Part shown: positions 22,126 through 38,566 of the stretch, in pieces | How the letters are laid out: each line of letters opens with the position of its first letter | Numbering within the stretch: the first letter of the stretch is position 1 | Source: a virus | DNA length: 42,756 nt | Reading direction: 5' to 3' (one strand) | IMG/VR virus record: IMGVR_UViG_3300017698_000003 | Location: 1 to 42,756 of that record | Translations under genes and position numbers: made by a program | Notes under the pieces: generated by a model | Seen by the model: the letters and a program-made list of their open reading frames with translations, nothing else | Told to the model about the DNA's origin: nothing | Database searches by the model: none

Positions 22126-22406
22126 GACTGCGCCGCGTCGTCAACTACGACGCCTTCCATATCCGCGACGTACACCATAACGGGCGGGTGCGATACGCCG
22201 ACAATGCCTAGCACGATATGCCCGCCCGCTTGCATGGCGGCTAGTTCCTTCGGGGTCGGGTGCCAGACCGTGAACATAACCGGCGTGTCGCCCTGCGACC
22301 CGTCGGCGTGAACCATTGATACGACGCTATCGGCGACCGGCAAGGGCGTGTAGCCCTGCGCTTCGCCAAGCACGCGCGTTACGTTGGCCGGGGTTCCTAC
22401 TTTCAT
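22122..22406 (-). CDS. Hypothetical protein
   Basis: Start at MKVGTPAN (ATGA overlap with the RNase H stop, GAAAGGAAC SD); 94 aa. Confidence 0.45.
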   Translation of the reverse strand: MKVGTPANVTRVLGEAQGYTPLPVADSVVSMVHADGSQGDTPVMFTVWHPTPKELAAMQAGGHIVLGIVGVSHPPVMVYVADMEGVVVDDAAQS

Positions 22407-22831
22407 GGCTGTAGTTCCTTTCGTTGCAATTTCATATGTCGGCGCGCTTCCGTATCGCACCAACGGTTACACCAAAAGCGGGGTTCTTTGCGCTTGGTAT
22501 GCCCCTTAACGTGACGCGCCTTTACGCGAATGTCAAGGCCAAGCCTACGAAGGTGCCCGCTAAAAGCGTGCTTGTTCTGTTGTATCAAGCGTACGACGTG
22601 TAGGCTATCCGTTTGGACTAGGGCAACTTGTGCCCCGGATAGCTTCGCTATGGTTAGCCCGTTGATTACGGCCCATAGTTCGGCTTCGTTAACGTCATTC
22701 GGTCGCCGCTTGAATGCGCCGCTATTCTGCACACGTATACCGCCGTCTACGGCGACGTAAGCGGCCCAACCGCCCGCCTTAGTTTCGTGGCATAGCGACG
22801 CGTCACTTATGACCGTCGCCGTTACTGTCAT
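22403..22831 (-). CDS. Ribonuclease H (type 1)
   Basis: D-E-D-H-D pattern: ISDAS, NEAELWAV, QTDS, HVKGHT, WCDTEA. Confidence 0.75.
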   Translation of the reverse strand: MTVTATVISDASLCHETKAGGWAAYVAVDGGIRVQNSGAFKRRPNDVNEAELWAVINGLTIAKLSGAQVALVQTDSLHVVRLIQQNKHAFSGHLRRLGLDIRVKARHVKGHTKRKEPRFWCNRWCDTEARRHMKLQRKELQP

Positions 22832-23632: not shown

Positions 23633-24550
23633 TTATGCGTCGTCGTGTTCTTCGGCAAACTTCGTAGCGTCGCGCAAGATACCCTTGTGCTTGGCTAGCA
23701 GTTCTTCGCGTTCTGCCCACACGTCGGGGTCGCGTACAAGGTCGATTTCGTCTTGTATCAGGTCGCGCAATACGCGGGGTTCCAGCGCGTCAAGTTCCCA
23801 TGAATACGCCCCATGTTCGGCGATATAGTCTTGCGCCCGGCTATCGGTCAACTTGGCCGGGTTCGGCGGCGGGTCGTACGCGCGCACTTGGTCAATGTTC
23901 AACGCTATGCGCTTGACTTCCAACGTTTGCCCTTCGCAGCCGTAATCGTTGTCTGCGCCGCTAAACATGCGCAAGCGGTCTTCGTTGTCGCGGGTCATAT
24001 CCAGCCCGCTAGGGTCGTGGTCGCCTAGGTGAATAACGACGACGCTTTGCCCGCCTTCCATGTACGTACGCAGCCGCTTGCCCGCTTCGTACAGTTCGCT
24101 TTGTGACACGTAGCCCCGGCACGCGAAGTAGTCTACGTCGTTGTCGCGGCACACGCGTTCGATAACGCCTACAAGGGCGTCTTTTTCTATCCATACTTCT
24201 AGGCGCACGTCTTGCCCGTCCCACATATCAATAGAGTATGCGCGGGAATTGTACCGGATAAGCGCAGCCGGGCTAGGCCACGATTGGACGCCGCGCAAGA
24301 ACCGCGTACGGTCTTCGATAGCGTCCCAATCAATCAACCCGGCAAGGCGACCGTTCGACACGGTGCGGCCTAGGCTATCGTACGCCTTTTGGTTGTTCGG
24401 GATAAGGCCGCGCGACACGAATTGGTAATAGAGTTGTCGCAGGGTCAGCTTAAGCCCGTCGGCTTGGTATTCGTCGATAATGTCGTTTGCCTGTGCGATA
24501 GTCGCCAACGACGACTTTCTAAAGGGCACGTCCTTAAAGTGTTCACGCAT
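23633..24550 (-). CDS. Type IIB topoisomerase A-subunit (Top6A/Spo11)-like protein: 5Y-CAP plus Toprim ('Mini-A'-like)
   Basis: LTLRQLYYQFV (R-x-L-Y-Y, as at the catalytic Tyr of Spo11/Top6A). EVWIEKDALVGVI (Toprim Glu). HLGDHDPSGLDM (DxDPxG). 305 aa, with no B subunit nearby. Confidence 0.6.
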   Translation of the reverse strand: MREHFKDVPFRKSSLATIAQANDIIDEYQADGLKLTLRQLYYQFVSRGLIPNNQKAYDSLGRTVSNGRLAGLIDWDAIEDRTRFLRGVQSWPSPAALIRYNSRAYSIDMWDGQDVRLEVWIEKDALVGVIERVCRDNDVDYFACRGYVSQSELYEAGKRLRTYMEGGQSVVVIHLGDHDPSGLDMTRDNEDRLRMFSGADNDYGCEGQTLEVKRIALNIDQVRAYDPPPNPAKLTDSRAQDYIAEHGAYSWELDALEPRVLRDLIQDEIDLVRDPDVWAEREELLAKHKGILRDATKFAEEHDDA

Positions 24551-26939: not shown

Positions 26940-29384
26940 TTAGGTGCCTATGAACCTGTGCGCGTCCGACACGGCGTAAGCTTTGCCGCGTACATTATAC
27001 TTTTGCAGGTCAGCCCGACCGACTTCTATTAGTGCGCCTTCGTCAAGCAATGACTGCACAGTACGGCGAATAGCGTTGGTTGCCCCTACCCGGTCGTGCC
27101 GGAATGCGGCGGCGGCTACAAGCCTGCGCTGTATAAAGGTGTAGGGCACGATATGGTCGGCGTGCATGGCACGTTTAGCCCCGTATTTAACGACGGCTTC
27201 GAACGGCTGCGTTAGGTATTGGTTCACGACGCGGATAATGTCGGAAACTTGCTTGCTTTCTTCGCTGTTCTTGCCGACTTCGCCCATTTCGAACTTGCGA
27301 GTAATCGACCTAATGTCGCGTTCGATAAGCGCGTACGCCCATTCGGCTACGTCCTTGGTTATGACGACCGACACGCGGTCGGTGTTGCCGTGGTCGGCGC
27401 AGCCTACGGCGATTAGCCCGGCAAGCTTAAGCGTCTTAATGTGGGCACGGTTCCATAGGTGCCGTATTGCTTCGCGTTGGTCTGGCACGTTGATTTGACT
27501 ATCTGCGTACCTATCGACTTCACGTAGGAACGTGTCGGCTTCGGGCGTGTATTCGACCGCTACGGCCATGTTGTGCGAATTCAAGCGTAGGCTATTGTCG
27601 CACAGGTCGCAGAACCGTTTGACTAAATCCATGGAAGGCACCGCGTAGGCGTGTGCTTCGTTGAATTGCGGACGCGCGCCGCCGTACTCAATTGTCAGAA
27701 AGCGCGGCAACAGGCCGTCGCTAATAAGGCTTTCGTCTAGGTTGCTGTAGTAGGTTTCGGGCGTGCTTTCGCCTAGCAACGTGAACGCGGGCGACAATAC
27801 GTCGTCGGTGTTCTTTTCCTTGTCGCTGTAGATTGTGGGGCGCAGAACGTTGCCGCTACCCGACTTGTTATACAGGTCTAGCAGTACCTTCTTAAGCATG
27901 ATTTCAGACGACGACGCGCGCGGGTGCGCTAGCCGTTGCATGGTCAAGCCGAATTCGCCTACGACCGAACAGAAACTACGTTGCTTGCCTATGTACTTAA
28001 GCAACGCCTGCCCGCTGGATATTTCGGCGGGGCCGATAAATTCCCGAACGGCTGGCATGGTGTTTAGCCCGGTATCGTCTGCCAAGCCGCCGCGCATAAC
28101 GTACGACATGAACTTTTCGATACCGCTTTGCATGGCTTCTTTACCTGTGCCCGTCGGTGCCAGCATTAGAACGTAGTTGTTAAGGCCGGTAGCGGACACG
28201 TTGAACGAACGCCCGCACACGCCAGACATAAGCCCGATTGCCGCCGCTATGGCGATTTCGGGCACAGGGCGCGGGGCGCTACGGTAGATAAAGTCGGCAA
28301 GTTCACCAACCAAGCCGGGCGGGGGCGTAATCGACGCCACCACAGGGGCCGGGGCGGGCTGCGCAGGTGCCGCCGGTATTTCGGCTTGCCCGTCTATCGG
28401 TTTGGGGGCCGGGGGCGTCATGGCGCGGGCTATCTGCGCCGACAAGTCGATTTGCGGGGGCGTGCCCACAGGCGCGGCGCGCTTGGCCTGTTCGGCGGCT
28501 ACGACGCGTTCGGCTTCGTTAAACACCCCTTCGGCGTCGATTGGCGGTAGCATATGGTCGAACGCGCGGTTAATCGTGTAGTTCAAATACCCGTTGCGCT
28601 GCGCCTTTTCGCGCTGGCCTAGCGGGCTTTGCCTGAATAGGCGCATTAGCTGCGTTCGGTGCTGCGAATAGAACGCTAAGAAGTTCATGTACGCTTGGTC
28701 GGCTTCCGACTGCGACGGGTAATCGTTGTGCCAATCGCCCGAATGCAAGCGCATAAACTTTTCGCCGTTGACGGCGTTAGACGCCTTTTCGATAACTTCG
28801 GCGTCGGTAAGCTTTTCGACTATATCGCCGCTTACGTTGTGTTGTTCAATGTGCCCGCCTAGTTCGTGCCACAGGGTCGAAACAAGCGTTTGCCGTTCGG
28901 CTATGGGCGCGTCGTTGAATACGTCGCCGGTCACGGTAAAGAAGCGGCCCGACGAATACAGTTCTATCTTGCCCCGGCGGCGTCCGCCGTGTACGTGCCC
29001 CCGTACGATTATGTGCAAGCCTTTGCCCGACGGCGACCGTTCGGCGTAGCTGTTGAACATTTGGTAAATCTTAAGCTGCACGCGCAAGGCGTTTTCGTCG
29101 CCCGCCGTGTCGTCAAGGTCTACGCCCGCGAAGGGGTCGTGTTCCGTAAAGACGAAGCCCGCGCCCGACCAATTGCCAGAACCTAGCGCGGTCATTACCT
29201 GTTCGAACGTGCCCCATGTCGCCGCGTCGGATACCGACGCTAGCCGCCCGGTCTTCGGGTCGTAGGGCACTTTTGTAGGTTTGGTTCCGTCGCGGTCTTC
29301 GTAGCGCCATACTACCCATTGGTGATAATCGCGCATGTCCGCCGGAACGTTCATAAGACGTTCATACATTAAGCGGCTTCCCAT
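26940..29384 (-). CDS. Primase-polymerase (prim-pol) fused to a PriCT and P-loop helicase-like C-terminal domain
   Basis: WVVWRYE..KVPYDP, GVDLDD, YAERSPSGKGLHIIVRG and IELYSSGRFFTVTGD (prim-pol). SQSEADQAYMNFLAFY (PriCT-like). MLAPTGTGKE (Walker A). The start may be 29369 (GGGAAG SD). Confidence 0.8.
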   Translation of the reverse strand: MGSRLMYERLMNVPADMRDYHQWVVWRYEDRDGTKPTKVPYDPKTGRLASVSDAATWGTFEQVMTALGSGNWSGAGFVFTEHDPFAGVDLDDTAGDENALRVQLKIYQMFNSYAERSPSGKGLHIIVRGHVHGGRRRGKIELYSSGRFFTVTGDVFNDAPIAERQTLVSTLWHELGGHIEQHNVSGDIVEKLTDAEVIEKASNAVNGEKFMRLHSGDWHNDYPSQSEADQAYMNFLAFYSQHRTQLMRLFRQSPLGQREKAQRNGYLNYTINRAFDHMLPPIDAEGVFNEAERVVAAEQAKRAAPVGTPPQIDLSAQIARAMTPPAPKPIDGQAEIPAAPAQPAPAPVVASITPPPGLVGELADFIYRSAPRPVPEIAIAAAIGLMSGVCGRSFNVSATGLNNYVLMLAPTGTGKEAMQSGIEKFMSYVMRGGLADDTGLNTMPAVREFIGPAEISSGQALLKYIGKQRSFCSVVGEFGLTMQRLAHPRASSSEIMLKKVLLDLYNKSGSGNVLRPTIYSDKEKNTDDVLSPAFTLLGESTPETYYSNLDESLISDGLLPRFLTIEYGGARPQFNEAHAYAVPSMDLVKRFCDLCDNSLRLNSHNMAVAVEYTPEADTFLREVDRYADSQINVPDQREAIRHLWNRAHIKTLKLAGLIAVGCADHGNTDRVSVVITKDVAEWAYALIERDIRSITRKFEMGEVGKNSEESKQVSDIIRVVNQYLTQPFEAVVKYGAKRAMHADHIVPYTFIQRRLVAAAAFRHDRVGATNAIRRTVQSLLDEGALIEVGRADLQKYNVRGKAYAVSDAHRFIGT

Positions 29385-30696: not shown

Positions 30697-31377
30697 ATGC
30701 AAATGTCGCAACTTCGGCCCGCTTACGCGTGCGCAGCACAATACGGCGTTAAGTCGCTTGCCCACGGCGGGCCGGGGTCCGGTAAAACGCCCTTGGTCAA
30801 AACCGCACCGCGCCCCGTACTGTGCGCGACGGAACCCGGCCTACTTTCCTTGCGCGATTGGGACGGCCCCGTATGGGAAGCCTACACCCCCGGCGCAATA
30901 GACGAATTCTTTACATGGGTAAAGTCGTCGAACGAAGTACACAACTTCGATACAATCGTAGTAGATAGCGTGTCGCAAATGGCCGAAATCTACTTAGCGC
31001 AAGCCCTTATCAAGCACAAGCACGGCTTGAAGGCTTACGGCGACATGGCCGAAAAGGTTATGGAACACGTCACGACGCTGTATTACATGCAACAAAAGCA
31101 CACGTACTTAATCGCCAAGCAATACCTTAGCGAAGAAGGCGGCGGCATGACGAAGAAACGCCCGTACTTTCCGGGCAAAGAATGTAACGTGAAGGTTCCG
31201 CACCTTTACGACGAAATCTTGTGCGTAGGGCTTTATCAAGTGCCCGGCGTACAGGGCGAACAGCGCGCAATTCGCACGCTGGATAGTCTAACCGTTGCCG
31301 CCCGTGATAGGTCGGGGCGATTGGACGAATTCGAACCTTGCGACTTAGGCGCATTGTTCGCAAAGTGCATGTCTTAA
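30697..31377 (+). CDS. Sak4-like RecA-fold ATPase (AAA_24 family, single-strand annealing)
   Basis: Walker A in HGGPGSGKT and Walker B in TIVVDSVS. 226 aa, directly upstream of a DUF669-type SSB, the usual pairing. Confidence 0.7.
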   Translation: MQMSQLRPAYACAAQYGVKSLAHGGPGSGKTPLVKTAPRPVLCATEPGLLSLRDWDGPVWEAYTPGAIDEFFTWVKSSNEVHNFDTIVVDSVSQMAEIYLAQALIKHKHGLKAYGDMAEKVMEHVTTLYYMQQKHTYLIAKQYLSEEGGGMTKKRPYFPGKECNVKVPHLYDEILCVGLYQVPGVQGEQRAIRTLDSLTVAARDRSGRLDEFEPCDLGALFAKCMS

Positions 31378-31399: not shown

Positions 31400-32215
31400 A
31401 TGGTACAACTTAACTTTGACGCTAACCAAGTGGCACCGAATACGGGTTTTGAACCCGTGCCCGAAGGTTGGTATAACGTCGCTATCACCGAAAGCGAAGT
31501 GAAGCCGACGAAAGACGGCGAAGGCGCGTACTTGCAGCTTAAGTGCAGCATTATCGACGGGCCGCACGCAAACAAGCCGGTATTCGTTCGTCTGAATATC
31601 CAGAACAAGAACCAACAGGCCGTAGACATTGCCTACGGCGAATTGTCGGCTATCTGCCACGTTATCGGCGTGTATCAGGTCGGCGATACGTCGCAAATGC
31701 ACGGTATCCCGTTTCAGGTTCGCGTCGTCGTTCGCAAGGACGCCAACGGCGAAAACAACGACGTTAAGGCGTACCGCGACGCACGCGGCAACGAACCGGG
31801 CAAGGCTGCACAGGGCGGCGGGCAACCGTCAAGCTTCGGCGGCGCACCACAGGGACAAGGCCAGCCGAACCAAGGCCAGCCGGGCGGCGGTTTTCAGGGT
31901 CAGCCCGCACAGGGTCAGCCTGCGCAGAACCCCGCACAGGGCGGCGGTTGGGGTCAGCCCGGCCAAGGCCAGCCCGCACAGGGGCAGGGCAACCCGAACC
32001 AAGGCCAGAACCCCGCACAGGGGCAAAACCCTGCACAGGGTCAGCCGCAAGGCCAGCCCAATAACGGGCAGGGTGCCCCATGGGGCGGCGGTCAGCCTGC
32101 ACAGGGGCAAGCCCCGGCACAGGGGCAGAACCCGGCGCAGGGCGGCGGCGGTTGGACGCAGAACGGCCAGCCCGGCAACAATGGCGGCGGGGCACCGTGG
32201 GGCGGTCAGCAATAG
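31400..32215 (+). CDS. DUF669-type phage ssDNA-binding-like protein with a ~140-aa Gln/Gly/Pro/Asn-rich tail
   Basis: N-terminal ~130 aa (PEGWYNVAITESEVKPTKDGEGAYLQLKCSII...) resembles DUF669. The tail consists of GQPAQGQ/NPAQGG(G)W repeats and ends in GGAPWGGQQ. Confidence 0.6.
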   Translation: MVQLNFDANQVAPNTGFEPVPEGWYNVAITESEVKPTKDGEGAYLQLKCSIIDGPHANKPVFVRLNIQNKNQQAVDIAYGELSAICHVIGVYQVGDTSQMHGIPFQVRVVVRKDANGENNDVKAYRDARGNEPGKAAQGGGQPSSFGGAPQGQGQPNQGQPGGGFQGQPAQGQPAQNPAQGGGWGQPGQGQPAQGQGNPNQGQNPAQGQNPAQGQPQGQPNNGQGAPWGGGQPAQGQAPAQGQNPAQGGGGWTQNGQPGNNGGGAPWGGQQ

Positions 32216-32278: not shown

Positions 32279-32770
32279 ATGGCGGGCATAACCGACGCGT
32301 TACCGCCGCCCCTAATATGTGATAACTGCGAAAGCCAAAGGGTAAAGCTATACCGAAACACAAGACGAAATCGGGCAAAGTACGTTTGCTTGCAATGCAA
32401 GGCAAGCGTCTACTGCCACAAGGGCACTAGCGTACCCCTAGGGTACATGGCAACAGCGAAGACAAGATACTTACGTGCTAAAGCGCACGAAGTCTTCGAC
32501 CCCCTTTGGCAACACGGCCTAATGACGCGCGACGAAGCGTACGAATGGCTAGCCCGGCAAATGTCGATACCCGGCGCAAACGCACACATAGGGCGGTTAG
32601 ACGATAACCAATTAGAACGGGTCGTGCGCAAATGCGCGCGGCATTACCGGAAACTAACGGCCAAGGCCAAGCGACAAAAGGCGGTAAGACATGCTACCGA
32701 TAGAAGACAACGTACCTATTCCCGTTCAAGGAAACGCGGCGGAAAATGGAAACCAATCCCCGACAATTGA
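32279..32770 (+). CDS. Zinc-finger protein, DUF3268-like
   Basis: CDNC...YVCLQCKASVYCHKGT..PLGYMA...HEVFDPLWQ...AYEWLA fits the pattern as I recall it. Confidence 0.5.
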   Translation: MAGITDALPPPLICDNCESQRVKLYRNTRRNRAKYVCLQCKASVYCHKGTSVPLGYMATAKTRYLRAKAHEVFDPLWQHGLMTRDEAYEWLARQMSIPGANAHIGRLDDNQLERVVRKCARHYRKLTAKAKRQKAVRHATDRRQRTYSRSRKRGGKWKPIPDN

Positions 32771-33650
32771 CGACCCCCTAGCGGCACCGGGCAAGCGAAA
32801 AGAGCTTGCCCGCGTTATCCTACAGGACATTGACGCGTATTGCGTGCAGGCGTACGACGACGGGCACCGCAACCACTTAGGCGCGTCGCTTATCGGTCAC
32901 GAATGCACGCGCTACCTGTGGAACGTGTTCCGTTGGCTTAAGCGGGAAAACTTCGAAGGCCGTATGCTGCGCCTATTCCAGCGTGGGCACCGCGAAGAAG
33001 CCGCCTTTGAAGAATACTTGCGGGGTATCGGGGCGCAGGTCGTCGCGTTCCAGCCCGACGCAGACGGAAACGCGAACAAGGGCGAACAACAATACCGCAT
33101 TAGCGCCGTGCAAGGCCACTTCGGCGGGTCGCTTGACGGGCAACTTATCTTGCCAGAACGTTACGGCGTACCCTTCGGCATGTTGTCGGAATACAAGACC
33201 AAGGGCACCGGGCGCGGCTTTACGGAACTTAAAGAAAAGGGCGTGAAGCTAACCAACCCGACGCACTACGCGCAAATGTCAATGTACGGTCGCGCGTACG
33301 GGTACAAGTACGCCATGTATATGTCGGTCAACAAAAACGACGACGACCTACACGTAGAAATCGTCGAACTTGATTGGCGGTTAGGCGAAGAACTAGAACG
33401 CAAGGCATACGACGTAATCACGGCGCAGGTTCCGCCCGCCAAGGTCGCCGAAACCCCGGCGTACAAGACGTGTAAAATGTGCCACTTTTCCGGCGTATGT
33501 TTTAGCGGCGAAGCCGTCGAACGTAATTGCCGTAGTTGCGCGAACGCACGCCCCGTAGACGAAGGCAAATGGTATTGCGCAGTCTTCGAAGACGTGATAC
33601 CGTCGGATTATATCAAGCAAGGGTGCGACCGGCACACGCCGATAGCATAG
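32691..33650 (+). CDS. PD-(D/E)xK exonuclease, Cas4/RecB-like, with a 4-Cys cluster
   Basis: GGSLDG...LSEYKTKG (D...ExK). Cys in GHECTRYLW plus CKMCHFSGVC (CxxCx5C), as in Cas4/AddB Fe-S nucleases. Confidence 0.65.
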   Translation: MLPIEDNVPIPVQGNAAENGNQSPTIDDPLAAPGKRKELARVILQDIDAYCVQAYDDGHRNHLGASLIGHECTRYLWNVFRWLKRENFEGRMLRLFQRGHREEAAFEEYLRGIGAQVVAFQPDADGNANKGEQQYRISAVQGHFGGSLDGQLILPERYGVPFGMLSEYKTKGTGRGFTELKEKGVKLTNPTHYAQMSMYGRAYGYKYAMYMSVNKNDDDLHVEIVELDWRLGEELERKAYDVITAQVPPAKVAETPAYKTCKMCHFSGVCFSGEAVERNCRSCANARPVDEGKWYCAVFEDVIPSDYIKQGCDRHTPIA

Positions 33651-33657
33651 GGCCGAA

Positions 33658-35289
33658 ATGTCGTTACGTTGGTATCAAGACGAAGCTATAGAAAGCATTT
33701 TTCAATACTTCGGTAACGGCGGGGTAGGTAATCCCGTCGTTGCGTTGCCCACAGGCACCGGCAAATCGCACGTAATCGGCGGGTTTCAACAGCGCGCGCT
33801 AGGCTACTGGCCTAGGCAACGGTTCATTAACCTAACGCACGTAAAGGAACTTGTAGAACAGAACGCGAAGAAGCTTATAGGTATGTGGCCTTCGGCCCCC
33901 GTAGGCATTAACAGCGCGGGCTTGAAGCAACGCGACATAATGCAAGCGATTATCTTTGCGGGTATTGCCAGCGTAGCGAAGAACCCGGCGGCGCTAGGGC
34001 ACCGCGACCTAGCCCTAATAGACGAATGCCACCTTGTCAGCCCTAACGCCGAAACCACGTACCAAACCTTTCTAGCGGCTTTGCGCGAAGTGAACCCGTA
34101 CCTTAAGGTCGTTGGCTTCACTGCGACCCCGTACCGTCTAGGGCAGGGCATGATTACCGACGGCGGCTTGTTTACCGACATATGCTACGACATGACGAAT
34201 ATTGACGGGTTCGGGCGGTTGCTTGCCGAAGGGTTCTTAGCGCCCTTGTTCCCGCGACCAACGAAGACCGAACTAGACGTGTCGGGCGTAGGTATGTCGA
34301 ACGGCGACTACACGCAAAACGCGCTACAAGCCGCCGTAGACAAGCAAGACGTAACCTACCGCGCACTAATGGAATTGTGCGAAGCCGGTTGGAACCGCCG
34401 CGCTTGGCTCGTCTTCGCGTCTGGCGTAGAACACGCCGAACACATAGCCGAAATGCTTAACAGCTTTGGCATTCCGTCCGCCGCCGTTCATTCAAAGATG
34501 AAAGCAAGCGAACGCGACGAACGTATTAAGGCGTTCAAGCGGGGCGAACTTAGGTGCCTAGTCAACAACAACGTTTTGACTACGGGCTTTGACTACCCGC
34601 CTATCGACCTAATCGGAATGCTGCGCCCTACCATGTCGCCCGGCCTGTGGGTTCAAATGCTAGGCCGGGGTACGCGTCCGTTCCTTGACGGCGGCTATAT
34701 CGACATAGGGGGCGGTCAAGAACTGTGGATACCGGGCGGCAAGACCGATTGCCTTGTGCTTGACTTCGCGGGCAACACGAAGCGGCTAGGGCCGATTAAC
34801 GACCCGTGCATACCGAAGAAGAAGAAGGGTATAGCAGGCGACGCGCCCGTGCGCATATGCGACGTATGCGGAACGTATAACCATGCGGCGGCGACGCATT
34901 GCATTTGTTGCGGTACTGAATTCGAACGCAGGGAAAAACTAACCGACAAGGCGTCGAACGAAGAACTATTGCGCAGCGACGCGCCCGTAGTCGAATACTT
35001 CGACGTAACGCGCGTAATGTACCACAGGCACGAAAAGAAGGATACGGGCGCTATAAGCCTGCGCTGCGACTACTATAGCGGCATTCAACGCTTTAGCGAA
35101 TGGGTACACTTCGAAAAGGGCGGTATGCCGGGGCACAAGGCTAAAGAGTGGTGGCGGCAACGTCACGCCGCCGAACCGCCCGCAACAGTTGACGAAGCCC
35201 TTACGTTCGTGTCGCAGCTTCGCGCGCCCCGTCGTATTCGCGTATGGACAAACAAACGTTACCCGGAGATTTTAGGCTATGAATATTGA
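33658..35289 (+). CDS. Superfamily 2 DEAD/DEAH-box DNA helicase
   Basis: ALPTGTGKSHV (motif I), LIDECHLV (II), GFTATPYR (III), QMLGRGTR (VI). C-terminal CDVC...CICC zinc ribbon. Confidence 0.8.
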   Translation: MSLRWYQDEAIESIFQYFGNGGVGNPVVALPTGTGKSHVIGGFQQRALGYWPRQRFINLTHVKELVEQNAKKLIGMWPSAPVGINSAGLKQRDIMQAIIFAGIASVAKNPAALGHRDLALIDECHLVSPNAETTYQTFLAALREVNPYLKVVGFTATPYRLGQGMITDGGLFTDICYDMTNIDGFGRLLAEGFLAPLFPRPTKTELDVSGVGMSNGDYTQNALQAAVDKQDVTYRALMELCEAGWNRRAWLVFASGVEHAEHIAEMLNSFGIPSAAVHSKMKASERDERIKAFKRGELRCLVNNNVLTTGFDYPPIDLIGMLRPTMSPGLWVQMLGRGTRPFLDGGYIDIGGGQELWIPGGKTDCLVLDFAGNTKRLGPINDPCIPKKKKGIAGDAPVRICDVCGTYNHAAATHCICCGTEFERREKLTDKASNEELLRSDAPVVEYFDVTRVMYHRHEKKDTGAISLRCDYYSGIQRFSEWVHFEKGGMPGHKAKEWWRQRHAAEPPATVDEALTFVSQLRAPRRIRVWTNKRYPEILGYEY

Positions 35290-35527
35290 TAGAGGAACGG
35301 CGAACCTTGAACTACTTACTACGTGGTTGTGCAATCGTATAAGCGTACACACGAAGTACAGTATAGAACGCGAAGTGCGTAACGCCCTTCGAACGTGCGT
35401 TACGTGCGAACACTTTGACAAGGACGCCGAAACGTGTAAACTAGCAGACGGGCAACGACCGCCCGCTAAGGTCATAGCGTACGGCTGCGATAGCTATACG
35501 TTCGAATTCGACGACATACCATTTTAA
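35279..35527 (+). CDS. Small 4-Cys protein ending in an SSB-like acidic tip (..EFDDIPF)
   Basis: 82 aa with a GGAG SD. CVTC-x10-C-x16-C. The last six residues FDDIPF match the conserved bacterial SSB C-terminal tip DDDIPF. Confidence 0.55.
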   Translation: MNIDRGTANLELLTTWLCNRISVHTKYSIEREVRNALRTCVTCEHFDKDAETCKLADGQRPPAKVIAYGCDSYTFEFDDIPF

Positions 35528-35537
35528 GGGGGTTGCC

Positions 35538-36548
35538 ATGGCACCGCGCAAACGAACAACACCAAAGGACAAAGAACCTAAGCTAAGTCTTGCCGTCGCG
35601 CTTGACTTCGTGAAGGTCGCACAATCTGACAAGTCTAACGACCTTGTAGCGAAAACGCACTGTAGGTTACAAGGCGGGTTCGCGGTCGCGTTCGACGGCG
35701 TTCTAGCGGTCGGGCACCCTATCGAAGAAGAACTAGCAGTGTGTCCGCACACTTACCGACTAATCGACGCCCTATCGCGCTGCAAAAAGACCATATCTAT
35801 TACGCAGCTTGACGGCGAACAGCTTGTGATTAAGTCGGGCGGGTTCCGGGTCGTTATCCCGTGCTTGAACCCGGCGGCACTTCCGTACGCTGCGCCCGAC
35901 CCGAAGGCCGGTACAATCGACGACACGATTAAAGAGGGGTTCGCAATACTTAACCCTATCGTGTCGGGCACGGGGCACACGGTCGTAGAAGCTTCGTTGC
36001 TATTGAACAATAACAGCATGGTAGCGACCGACCGGCAAATAATGCTTGAATTTTGGCACGGTATCAACCTACCGGACGGCCTAGCCATACCTAAAGCGGC
36101 GGTCGTCGCGGTTAACAAGGTCAAGGCGGCGCTTGTGGGCATTGGTGTTTCAGAACGTACGGTTACGTTCCACTACGAAGGCGGCGCATGGATACGCACG
36201 CAGCTATACGCCGACCCATGGCCGGACGTTGCTAGCGTACTTAACAAGGGCGACCCGCACAACGCGATTAAAGCCCCCGACGGGTTTTACGACGGCGTAG
36301 AAGCCGTCGCCCCGTTTAGTGCGGCTGGCGAAGTGTACACCACAGACACGGGGCTAGCTTCACACAACACGGCGGGCGTAGGCGCTACGTACGAAGTAAA
36401 GAACGTACCGCCCGGCCTTTGCTTCGGGTCTAAGCACCTGTTAACCGTAAAAGACCACGGGGCTAAGGTTGACTTGGTAGGCGTTAACGGTATATCGTTC
36501 TTCTACGGCGACCGCGTACGCGGCGCAGTATCACAACGTAGGGGGTAA
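35538..36548 (+). CDS. DNA polymerase sliding clamp (DnaN/beta-clamp-like)
   Basis: LVIKSGGFRVVIPCLNPAALPYAAP compares with E. coli MLVRSGRSRFSLSTLPAADFPNL. NNNSMVATDRQIMLEF compares with LRTVATDGHRLAV. YADPWPDVASVLNKG compares with VDGRFPDYRRVLPKN. 336 aa. Confidence 0.6.
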   Translation: MAPRKRTTPKDKEPKLSLAVALDFVKVAQSDKSNDLVAKTHCRLQGGFAVAFDGVLAVGHPIEEELAVCPHTYRLIDALSRCKKTISITQLDGEQLVIKSGGFRVVIPCLNPAALPYAAPDPKAGTIDDTIKEGFAILNPIVSGTGHTVVEASLLLNNNSMVATDRQIMLEFWHGINLPDGLAIPKAAVVAVNKVKAALVGIGVSERTVTFHYEGGAWIRTQLYADPWPDVASVLNKGDPHNAIKAPDGFYDGVEAVAPFSAAGEVYTTDTGLASHNTAGVGATYEVKNVPPGLCFGSKHLLTVKDHGAKVDLVGVNGISFFYGDRVRGAVSQRRG

Positions 36549-36553
36549 CGTAC

Positions 36554-38566
36554 TTGTTCTTCGATACCGTAGATTTAGCGCCCCGTAAGCGTTCGACGTT
36601 ACGCGCAGCCCCGCCGGTTCCCCACACAGGTTGGACCCCGCCGCGCGAATTCCCGAACCTATCCGCCGCGACCGCGCTAGCCATTGACTGCGAAACGAAA
36701 GAAACCGACTTTTCGAACGGCCCCGGTTGGGGTCGCGGTAAGGGTCATATCGTCGGCGTGTCCGTAGCTGCACAGGCGGCGGACGGCGCACGCGGTAAAT
36801 GGTACTTCCCGGTTAGGCACGAAGTAGAGGGGCACGACAACCTAGACCCGCGCGGCGTATTCGGTTGGCTTAAGTCGGTGCTGCACACGCCAGTACCGAA
36901 GGTAGGGGCGAACCTGTTGTACGACGTGGGTTGGCTAACGACCGAAGACATTTACGTGCAAGGGCCGTTGCATGACGTGCAGTTTGCCGAAGCACTTATA
37001 GACGAATTCGCTTTTGTGGCGTTGGACGTGCTAGGGCATAAGTATCTAGGCCAGCGCAAGACTAGCGACCTTATGTACGATTGGTTGCGCGAAGCCTACC
37101 CGGAAACGCCTAAGTCGGAAACGCGCGGCGATATTTACCGTTGTCCGCCCCGGCTTGTGGGGCACTACGCCGAAGACGACGCCGACCTACCCTTGCGCAT
37201 TATCCCGCACCAATACGACGAAATGTTGCGGCAAGGTCTATTAACGGTTTATCGGCTAGAATGCGACCTAATACCGCTTCTAATCAGAATGCGGCGCGAA
37301 GGTGTTACCGTTGACATTCCAGCCGCGACGAAGCTATACGACGAAATGCAAGGCGAAATACGCGGACTATACGACCGTATCGGGTCCGAATATGGCTACA
37401 GTATTTCAAGTTCGGATAGTCGCCAGCTAGGGCCGCTATTCCAGCGCGTAGGCATTGCTACCCCTATGACGGACGCGGGCAACCCTAGCGTACAAAAGGA
37501 ATGGCTAGCCGGGCTAGAACACCCACTAGGCGACATTGTGCGCGACATACGCGAACGCGAAAAGTTGTGCGGCACGTTTATTCAGTCGTACATTATTGAC
37601 AAGAACGTAAACGGGAAAATATTCCCGCAATTTCACCCACTAAAGGGCGACGACAACGGCGCTAAGGTAGGCCGGTTCGCGTCAAGTGACCCCAACCTAC
37701 AAAACATACCGTCGCGCACTAAACTAGGTAAGCGCGTGCGGCAATTGTTCATACCCGACGCAGGCCACCACCATTGGACTAAGCTAGACTACTCACAAAT
37801 TCATTACCGCATTCTAGCGCACTTTGCCGTCGGGCCGGGTGCCGAAGAACTACGGCAAGCGTATATCAGAAACAAAGAAACCGACTACCACCAAAATGTA
37901 CTTGAAGCGGTCGCGCCGCTTATGGGTTGGGACACTAGCGACGACGAACATAACGCGTTCGTGCGCCGACCTATCAAAAACGTTAACTTCGGCCTGCTAT
38001 ACGGGCAGTCGCTTAAGTCGCTTATGCTTAAGACGGCTGCGTATTTCGGCGGCGCGTTCACCGAAGAACAGGCTAAAGGCTTCTTCGACGCCTACTTTAA
38101 GGGCGCACCATACGTTAAGCCAACTATGAAAATGATAGGCGAAGAAGTGCAGCAATTCGGCTACACGACTTCGGTACTTGGCCGTCGTTGCCGGTTCAAC
38201 CTGTGGGAACCCGGCGTGCGCGGCGAATGGGGCGACGCCCTGCCATACGACCAAGCGATACGCGAATACGGGTCGTTTATCCGTCGCGCGTACGAATATC
38301 GCGGCGTTAACTACAAGTTCCAATCGTCGGAACCGGACATTATGAAAACCGGCATGTTAAAGTGCCTCAATAGCGGCGTGTTCGACTACACAGGCGTACC
38401 GCGCCTAACTGTGCATGACGAACTAGACTTTAGCGTGCGCGACGACACGCCCGAAATGCGGGAAGCGTTCGAATTTATTCAGCATACTATGGAAGGTGCC
38501 GTAGAACTTAAGGTGCCGGTCTTCGTAGACATGGAACGCGGCCCGAATTGGGGCAAGGTCGATTAA
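36554..38566 (+). CDS. Family A DNA polymerase with 3'-5' exonuclease domain
   Basis: Exo motifs LAIDCETKE, NLLYDVGWL and HYAEDDADL. Pol motifs KLDYSQIHYRILAH (A), RRPIKNVNFGLLYGQS (B) and VHDELDF (C). TTG start with an AGGGGG SD. Confidence 0.85.
   Translation: MFFDTVDLAPRKRSTLRAAPPVPHTGWTPPREFPNLSAATALAIDCETKETDFSNGPGWGRGKGHIVGVSVAAQAADGARGKWYFPVRHEVEGHDNLDPRGVFGWLKSVLHTPVPKVGANLLYDVGWLTTEDIYVQGPLHDVQFAEALIDEFAFVALDVLGHKYLGQRKTSDLMYDWLREAYPETPKSETRGDIYRCPPRLVGHYAEDDADLPLRIIPHQYDEMLRQGLLTVYRLECDLIPLLIRMRREGVTVDIPAATKLYDEMQGEIRGLYDRIGSEYGYSISSSDSRQLGPLFQRVGIATPMTDAGNPSVQKEWLAGLEHPLGDIVRDIREREKLCGTFIQSYIIDKNVNGKIFPQFHPLKGDDNGAKVGRFASSDPNLQNIPSRTKLGKRVRQLFIPDAGHHHWTKLDYSQIHYRILAHFAVGPGAEELRQAYIRNKETDYHQNVLEAVAPLMGWDTSDDEHNAFVRRPIKNVNFGLLYGQSLKSLMLKTAAYFGGAFTEEQAKGFFDAYFKGAPYVKPTMKMIGEEVQQFGYTTSVLGRRCRFNLWEPGVRGEWGDALPYDQAIREYGSFIRRAYEYRGVNYKFQSSEPDIMKTGMLKCLNSGVFDYTGVPRLTVHDELDFSVRDDTPEMREAFEFIQHTMEGAVELKVPVFVDMERGPNWGKVD

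Follow-up and report, generated by a model that had tools for sequence, protein, structure and literature searches.

Why would a phage place the C-terminal tip of SSB, the bacterial protein that binds single-stranded DNA, on a separate, small protein? In bacterial genome maintenance that tip (SSB-Ct) is the central docking signal, usually regarded as a property of SSB itself. The question is raised by IMG/VR record IMGVR_UViG_3300017698_000003, a phage genome that is complete at about 43 kb and whose 42,756 nucleotides we call the window, in which an open reading frame (ORF) on the plus strand at 35279..35527 encodes 82 residues plus stop. The translation of this gene, whose product we refer to as the mini-protein, is MNIDRGTANLELLTTWLCNRISVHTKYSIEREVRNALRTCVTCEHFDKDAETCKLADGQRPPAKVIAYGCDSYTFEFDDIPF, and its C-terminal stretch, YGCDSYTFEFDDIPF, closes with FEFDDIPF directly before the stop codon. 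On the strength of the conservation of this terminus, the gene's neighbors, and the location of equivalent tips in related phages, we propose that the mini-protein is an accessory subunit of the RadD-like helicase encoded beside it, an adaptor that provides a surrogate SSB tail and whose partners are likely host SSB-interacting proteins and/or the phage's Sak4-like annealase. We consider this reading slightly better than an even bet, with a probability of roughly 0.55.

The mini-protein family and its C terminus

The initial annotation had recognized an ORF of 82 residues that ends in FDDIPF and overlaps the stop of the helicase gene, and translation bears this out. The ATG (35279-35281) lies ahead of the helicase TGA (35287-35289), giving a start/stop overlap of 11 nucleotides (35279..35289, plus strand) that probably couples translation of the two genes; a GGAG at 35265-35268 stands 10 nucleotides ahead of the ATG. 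A match to phrog_23504 (E = 4.4e-10; mini-protein residues 37-82 against profile positions 32-73 of 73) places the protein in an uncharacterized, phage-only family to which PHROG assigns no function and which appears confined to phages. There are 67 homologs in a set of 5.8 billion proteins, an exhaustive profile search recovered 1,590 cluster representatives at 50% identity, and tblastn located the gene in 131 GenBank phage records with alpha-, beta-, and gamma-proteobacterial hosts, every alignment listed extending to residue 82. In a search of bacterial genomes, a scan of 185,579 species genomes with the commonest mini-protein motif returned one spurious match, and no cellular or prophage copies with that motif were evident. 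Over the replication module the closest isolate, Paracoccus phage vB_PmaS-R3 (R3), is 77.5% identical in nucleotide sequence. Annotation of the gene is missing from R3 (locus L001, 5926-6156; KP162168), as it is from many records of Rosemountvirus (phages of Salmonella and E. coli); the annotation gap for this small overlapping gene is systematic.

Conservation of the C-terminal D-D-I-P-F among homologs, which the initial annotation had proposed as the check on a chance match, speaks against chance: Pro at position -2 and Phe, Tyr, or Trp at -1 are found in 214 of 214 family sequences, a set collected with profiles that include the tip and so favoring tip-bearing members. Position -3 is Ile, Val, or Leu in about 95% of these sequences and hydrophobic or Pro in all but two, and an acidic residue (Asp or Glu) occupies -4 in about 70% and -5 in about 65%. 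Among the further cluster representatives listed, 146 of 147 end hydrophobic-Pro-Phe/Tyr. The mini-protein itself fits an SSB-Ct-type terminus, defined by a terminal aromatic residue with a free carboxylate, Pro at -2, a hydrophobic residue at -3, and acidic residues at -4 to -6. The tip is kept even though overall identity drops to about 25-30%; the ends of distant homologs, at about 30% identity, are HDDDIPF in Xanthomonas phage XAJ2, FDYDVPF in Salmonella phage BP63, NNDDIPF in Erwinia phage AH03, DLGDIPF in Rhizobium phage N17, and HVDEIPF in R3. Ninety related loci, given L numbers below and the source of our linkage counts, were retrieved through the internal motif PPAxxIxxGC; 11 of their 90 mini-proteins are without a P-[F/Y/W] end, 6 of the 11 coming from near-duplicate contigs. 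These loci hold 8,269 complete ORFs, 83 of which carry the strict tip, and 80 of the 83 are the mini-protein, the clamp-like protein, or the helicase. Outside that set the background is 3 tip-type ends in about 8,190 ORFs, and among window ORFs of at least 40 residues the mini-protein alone has such an end.

An AlphaFold2 (AF2) model of the mini-protein (m1ac9ffac6ae1; predicted local distance difference test, pLDDT, 75) consists of a long helix, a small Cys-rich module, and an unstructured tail. The N-terminal helix covers residues 5-36 (35291..35386, plus strand; pLDDT about 70-80) and is variable in sequence across the family. The module that follows, residues 40-70 (35396..35488, plus strand), contains the motif RPPAxVIAxGC and a short modeled helix at 63-68; C40, C43, C53, P61, P62, C70, and P81 are invariant in the 67 homologs, and F82 is almost so. 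The Cys spacing is C40-x2-C43-x9-C53-x16-C70, with x9 where the initial annotation had counted x10, and a fifth Cys, C18, is not conserved. Metal binding by the four invariant Cys is likely, and we regard the module as a putative metal-binding element and a putative second interaction surface. The designation "zinc-ribbon-like" is not established, because a zinc ribbon has two CxxC knuckles on beta-hairpins and the mini-protein has one (C40, C43) together with two single Cys (C53, C70). Searches with Pfam, PDB profiles, Foldseek against the PDB, and PADLOC returned nothing significant for the mini-protein, and Pfam run on all 67 family members gave sub-threshold CxxCxxCC matches in 7 of 67 and no zinc-ribbon match. 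Nor is there an oligonucleotide-binding (OB) fold: Pfam found no SSB or OB match, and the AF2 model is one long helix plus the small Cys module.

The tail, residues 71-82 (35489..35524, plus strand), is modeled without secondary structure (pLDDT about 60-66) and ends in the SSB-Ct-type tip FDDIPF at 35507-35524. From the last Cys to the C terminus the distance is 5-38 residues across the family and about 12 in the window protein, and in the mini-proteins of L064 and L069 the ends ...YDIPF and ...DDDIPF follow Pro-rich linkers about 45 residues long; from this variation we conclude that the tip behaves as a tethered short linear motif, outside the fold. Unlike bacterial SSB, the mini-protein has no long disordered linker ahead of its tip, long linkers being confined to a few relatives (L064, L069). 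The L069 gene (7884-8231) encodes a family member of 115 residues with a 45-residue linker and an NYDDDIPF end, and it is found in the company of a primase (phrog_3022), endonuclease V, RusA, and the small terminase.

Carriers of the tip in related phages

The SSB of the window phage is a DUF669-family protein encoded at 31400..32215 on the plus strand (Pfam DUF669, E = 3e-16; phrog_6015 SSB). Its G/Q/P-rich tail has no acidic tip and ends ...GGAPWGGQQ, as the initial annotation had reported, and the same holds for the related loci, where an acidic tip is found in 0 of about 70 DUF669 SSBs. DUF669 proteins generally have acidic tails (PMC4889955), and elsewhere DUF669 SSBs do carry a tip, NDYPPF in phage HK620 and EIDLPF in Streptococcus phage 2972, where the SSB is encoded directly behind the helicase. 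The tails of the roughly 70 tipless SSBs (for example, L001-L089) end in (A/P)PW(G/A) followed by 2-5 residues (window, about 32180-32212); this element, standing in place of the acidic tip, is possibly a second, different docking motif.

Downstream of the mini-gene the window encodes a processivity factor or clamp-like protein (35538..36548, plus strand; phrog_947, E = 4e-54), which has no tip. In other phages it does. The tipless mini-proteins of L016, L032-37, L055, and L076 adjoin clamps that end SDDVPF, DDDDVPF, EDDDIPF, and GDDVPF; L028 and L088 also have tip-ended clamps, and Pseudomonas phage Ab26, in which there is no mini-gene, has a clamp ending YEDDIPF. The helicase itself bears a tip in the L022 clade (whose mini-protein is degenerate, ending ...EEPPF) and in two phages, Moraxella Mcat30 and E. 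coli JenP1. A tip closes 116 of 120 JenP1-like (Nonagvirus-like) helicases; it is DDDIPF in 49, and four have PMDFDDDIPF, which reproduces the C-terminal ten residues of E. coli SSB. In these proteins the chain continues past the point that corresponds to the terminal motif of the window helicase, through a linker of 50-100 residues, to the tip. Helicases with a tip in cis are without the Cys module, and no fusion of that module to a helicase was seen among the 67 homologs or the best 150 of the 1,590 clusters. In L089 the DNA polymerase ends LDDEIPF.

Taken together, five patterns (tipless SSBs, the complementarity of mini-protein and clamp, the Ab26 clamp, tips on helicases, and the L089 polymerase) suggest that this module tends to keep one SSB-type tip while its carrier varies, and that in this phage group, to judge from its sequences, the docking signal has apparently passed from the SSB to other proteins. 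The initial suggestion that the tip sits on a protein separate from the SSB is thus supported by the complementarity pattern across phages. There also seems to be an exchange of C-terminal linear motifs between the clamps on one side and the SSB and mini-protein on the other, since some clamps end in a GWG type like the SSB tail and others in DDIPF; those of L014, L038, L040, L054, and L060 are 100-170 residues longer than the clamp-like protein of the window and have ends such as PGWG, VGWGG, and GWGQADA.

The RadD-like helicase, candidate partners, and alternative readings

The gene that overlaps the mini-gene encodes a superfamily 2 (SF2) helicase of 543 residues (33658..35289, plus strand) with an internal Cys4 ribbon and the C terminus ...YPEILGYEY. 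Its homology to RadD (PDB 6jde/7r7j; phmmer E = 3.9e-53, residues 2-408 against RadD 4-391) escaped the initial annotation, as did the precedent for tip dependence of Sak4 discussed below. Pfam matches are to ResIII and Helicase_C, JGI names its relatives "DNA repair protein RadD," the Walker A lysine is kept in 83 of 84 phage helicases, and both RecA-like domains are homologous to those of RadD. The RadD C-terminal domain is not matched; the alignment stops at the zinc ribbon (helicase residue 408), beyond which the phage protein has a domain of its own. The helicase C terminus is strongly conserved as ...(R)VWxNKxYPE[IV]L[GS]YE[YF] before the stop (window 35263-35286, residues about 536-543). 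The initial description of the mini-gene as lying between helicase and clamp is accurate for the window, in which the starts of the clamp-like gene and of PolA are at 35538 and 36554. As a conserved arrangement it does not hold on the clamp side: the helicase is upstream of the mini-gene in 86 of the 87 loci where it is detectable, with an overlap or a gap of at most 20 nucleotides in 69, whereas the clamp lies within 50 nucleotides in just 31 of 77 loci, and in 15 of the 77 its distance exceeds 1 kb. The conserved linkage of the mini-gene is therefore to the helicase and not to the clamp.

In the arrangement we favor, the N-terminal helix and the 4-Cys/RPPA module would hold the mini-protein on the helicase, as synteny, translational coupling, and the equivalence of the two genes to a tip-bearing fusion suggest. 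Attachment may well be the main job of the Cys module, because helicases with a tip in cis need none. The short flexible tail, as read from its sequence, would present [D/E]-[D/E]-I-P-F with a free C terminus, and the terminal Phe and carboxylate would enter a basic-rimmed hydrophobic pocket of a partner, or of several, which the tip would thereby bring to the helicase. Loss of the tip from the DUF669 SSB would have divided DNA binding and partner docking between two proteins, the docking signal being re-anchored at the helicase. Sister phages would reach the same end state with a linker and tip on the helicase, the clamp, or the polymerase, or with a tip retained on the DUF669 SSB.

There are three main candidates for the partner, the third of which, the RadD-type pocket of the helicase itself, is taken up below as a rival. 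Host SSB-interacting proteins fit every type of carrier, and the idea is coherent because mimicry of the host tip is near exact in the E. coli phage clade and because Streptococcus phage 2972, the sole Firmicute phage examined, ends LPF where the proteobacterial phages mostly end IPF. Within this class chi is an attractive candidate target, since no clamp loader was detected among the non-structural genes of the window. Phage Sak4 is the second candidate. In HK620, Sak4 needs the last six residues (NDYPPF) of the DUF669 SSB for its loading and stimulation (PMC5928155); that dependence, together with the presence of Sak4 in 63 of 64 loci and its never being a tip carrier, makes it a plausible receptor by analogy. 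Given that RadD has an SSB-Ct pocket and that HK620 Sak4 depends on an SSB tip, phage-encoded receptors would be as plausible as host ones.

Several points weigh against this reading. That the Cys module binds the helicase is something we only infer. Tipless mini-proteins persist in some phages, which means that the Cys module must, in addition, serve some function that does not need the tip. L069 has no RadD-like helicase, Sak4, or DUF669 SSB within 8 kb of its mini-gene, and Rosemountvirus mini-proteins end DYDVPF, which is no close copy of the host DDDIPF. The co-occurrence of tipless mini-proteins with tip-ended clamps, which speaks for the reading (table of mini-protein tip against clamp tip 62/2/9/1; Fisher p = 5e-9), represents some 3-4 independent lineages and is uncorrected for phylogeny. 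Finally, Sak4, the DUF669 SSB, and the helicase each co-occur with the mini-protein in 63 of 64 loci, so presence and absence over these loci cannot separate them as partner.

The main rival, possible though we rank it below the adaptor, takes the helicase as the receptor: the tip would dock in a RadD-type pocket on RecA-like domain 1 and stimulate the helicase ATPase in trans, replacing an SSB-Ct signal that a tipless SSB cannot give. SSB-Ct pockets occur in many proteins, and that of E. coli RadD has been mapped experimentally to R21, R49, and R145 with T16, L17, F20, L44, L113, and L147 (PMC10238739). RadD needs no DNA for its ATPase activity, which SSB or an SSB-Ct peptide (dissociation constant about 5 uM) stimulates, and a single charge reversal in the pocket abolishes SSB-Ct binding (PMC10238739). 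Homology of the phage helicase to RadD and the tight coupling of its gene to the mini-gene fit such a role; moreover, the hydrophobic floor of the pocket stays hydrophobic, the R145 position is Lys or Arg in 74 of 84 phage helicases, and where sister phages have the tip on the clamp, polymerase, or SSB, it would recruit or activate the helicase just as well. Against it, the R21 and R49 positions are variable and not kept basic (the window has G19 and R53, and the R21 position is Asp or Glu in 22 of 84), and the residue equivalent to R145 does not co-vary cleanly with the type or location of the tip, being Ile in the L022 clade and Lys in JenP1. In addition, the helicase is itself the commonest alternative carrier (116 of 120 JenP1-like proteins, the L022 clade, and Mcat30), so that an auto-binding model is needed, and AF2 leaves the linker and tip of a natural cis-tip helicase disordered and undocked (last block pLDDT 29), a weak negative.

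We think it improbable that the tail acts as a T7-style electrostatic tether, an acidic, Phe-ended tail binding basic patches on the family-A polymerase or the clamp and thereby coupling helicase to polymerase. There is a precedent: the acidic C-terminal tails of T7 gp4 bind basic patches of gp5, and a 17-residue deletion brings processivity down to about 5 kb from 17 kb (PMC12593628). A family-A polymerase is also encoded two genes downstream in the window. However, what marks the tail as an SSB-Ct, and not just any acidic tail, is its invariant I/V-P-F with Pro at -2, polymerase and clamp themselves carry the tip in some phages, and PolA was detected near the mini-gene in just 27 of 64 loci, a count limited by the extent of the flanks. 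The tip is also unlike the clamp-binding consensus QL[SD]LF; for that reason, and because clamps themselves carry the tip, we rejected the idea that it is a clamp-binding motif.

The initial annotation had offered a choice between decoy and adaptor, and it is the adaptor that fits better, because sister phages fuse the tip to a low-copy helicase, clamp, or polymerase and because the mini-protein keeps a second conserved surface. A free decoy would titrate SSB-interacting proteins of the host, among them ExoI, RecQ, PriA, and chi, away from host SSB, either to stop DNA metabolism in the host or to shield phage DNA, and for this one may cite the close likeness of the tip to the host SSB-Ct, the small size and probable abundance of the mini-protein, and the avoidance of the tip by the phage SSB itself. 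We nevertheless judge it at least as improbable as the tether: coupling to one enzyme is strict, a decoy would have no use for the second conserved module, tips on a helicase, clamp, or polymerase are poor titrators, and the mini-protein loses its tip where the clamp carries one. A chance resemblance or a non-coding ORF, for which the gene's lack of annotation in R3 and many Rosemountvirus records could be cited, is dismissed because some 1,590 clusters share both this terminus and the architecture and because tip-type ends are rare in the background (about 3 per 8,000 ORFs).

If the adaptor reading is taken a step further, we may speculate that this large group of virulent proteobacterial phages took the SSB hub apart, so that the DUF669 SSB with its PWG end coats single-stranded DNA while a copy of the host SSB tip, held at the RadD-like helicase by the mini-protein or by fusion, captures specific host SSB-interacting factors at the fork, off the phage single-stranded DNA. 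This extension is tentative and clearly less probable than the adaptor role itself. The clamp loader, captured via chi, would be a candidate factor, because the phages encode a clamp-like protein and no detectable loader. If true, the arrangement would be a previously undescribed replisome organization as well as a natural SSB-Ct competitor.

Known systems and the remainder of the module

The motif and the general logic are already known from the SSB-Ct hub, RadD-SSB, Sak4-SSB, and the tails of T7 gp4 and gp2.5. What is new is a dedicated, widespread family of tip-carrying mini-proteins, the tip's consistent lack in the cognate DUF669 SSBs, and its relocation among helicase, clamp, polymerase, and SSB within one type of module; as the initial annotation had supposed, no description of a phage protein of this design was found in the literature searched. 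The likeness to the bacterial SSB-Ct (...MDFDDDIPF) lies in the position at the extreme C terminus, the acidic residues followed by I/V-P-F, and the flexible tether, and it extends to the Pro-rich linker of about 45 residues in some mini-protein relatives and to the last 9-10 residues of some sister-phage helicases, which are identical to those of E. coli SSB. In contrast to SSB, the carrier is a helix plus 4-Cys mini-protein (or a helicase, clamp, or polymerase) and not an OB-fold protein that binds single-stranded DNA. The mini-protein is presumably a monomer, with one copy or a few for each helicase where SSB forms arrays along single-stranded DNA, and its linker in the window is just about 12 residues long.

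The acidic tails of T7 gp4 and gp2.5, which end in Phe, resemble the present case in that an acidic C-terminal tail on a phage helicase serves replisome docking and is interchangeable between carriers. They differ in not being of the I-P-F type, in binding basic patches of the polymerase, and in being a covalent part of the helicase, whereas here the tip is on a separate subunit and is of the SSB-Ct type. With HK620 the window shares the type of module, Sak4 adjoining the DUF669 SSB, and PPF tips are also found among the mini-proteins; the HK620 tip, however, is on the SSB, and in the window phage a PWG-type motif ends the SSB and a helicase-linked protein bears the tip. The E. coli RadD-SSB pair (PDB 7R7J; PMC10238739) is comparable in that a RadD homolog is encoded with a tip-bearing partner and that the hydrophobic pocket and a basic residue at R145 (Lys) are kept. 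Two of the three pocket arginines are not conserved, the phage helicase has a different C-terminal domain, the tip donor is a mini-protein or a helicase tail and not SSB, and docking is predicted from sequence.

A phage lineage represented by more than 1,500 protein clusters offers a natural experiment on tip function uncoupled from binding to single-stranded DNA. It also gives a widespread and often unannotated gene a testable role, and it connects a tip donor with the RadD-like helicases and Sak4 annealases of phages. SSB-partner interactions are already pursued as antibacterial targets, and these small natural presenters of SSB-Ct are possible tools or inhibitor leads against such interactions.

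The tip and the helicase belong to a conserved cassette of replication and recombination genes: a Sak4-like annealase, the DUF669 SSB, a DUF3268 protein, a Cas4-type exonuclease, the SF2 helicase, the mini-protein, the clamp-like factor, and PolA. In the window, all on the plus strand, the annealase (AAA_24) is encoded at 30697..31377 (phrog_124, E = 7e-43), the Cas4-domain exonuclease at 32691..33650 (phrog_1990, E = 3e-96), and a family-A DNA polymerase with 3'-5' exonuclease at 36554..38566 (Pfam DNA_pol_A, E = 8.5e-60). As listed, the exonuclease ORF overlaps that of the DUF3268 zinc-finger protein (32279-32770) by 80 nucleotides; its true start is probably further downstream, since the PHROG match begins at residue 33. 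For the phrog_947 protein, comparison with PDB chains gave no match at the sequence level, so that the clamp identity rests on the PHROG name; we accordingly dropped the claim of a verified beta-clamp.

Three further genes lie on the opposite strand, encoding an RNase H-like protein (22403-22831; phrog_531), a topoisomerase-like protein (23633-24550; phrog_6247), and a primase-helicase of 814 residues (26940-29384; phrog_3022). E. coli RNase HI and primase bind the SSB tip, and by analogy the phage RNase H-like protein and primase-helicase are further candidate partners for the tip.

Two observations on other helicases may be added. A JenP1-like helicase of 995 residues (P0246) contains homing-endonuclease or intein-type domains (PF05204, PF05203, and PF14528) and probably carries an inserted intein. 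Behind a more distant RadD-like helicase, Serratia phage Ulliraptor encodes gp47 (L094, 8683-9000), a protein of 105 residues without a family match that ends ...CPNWVWDDVPIA, which could be a degenerate or internalized tip.

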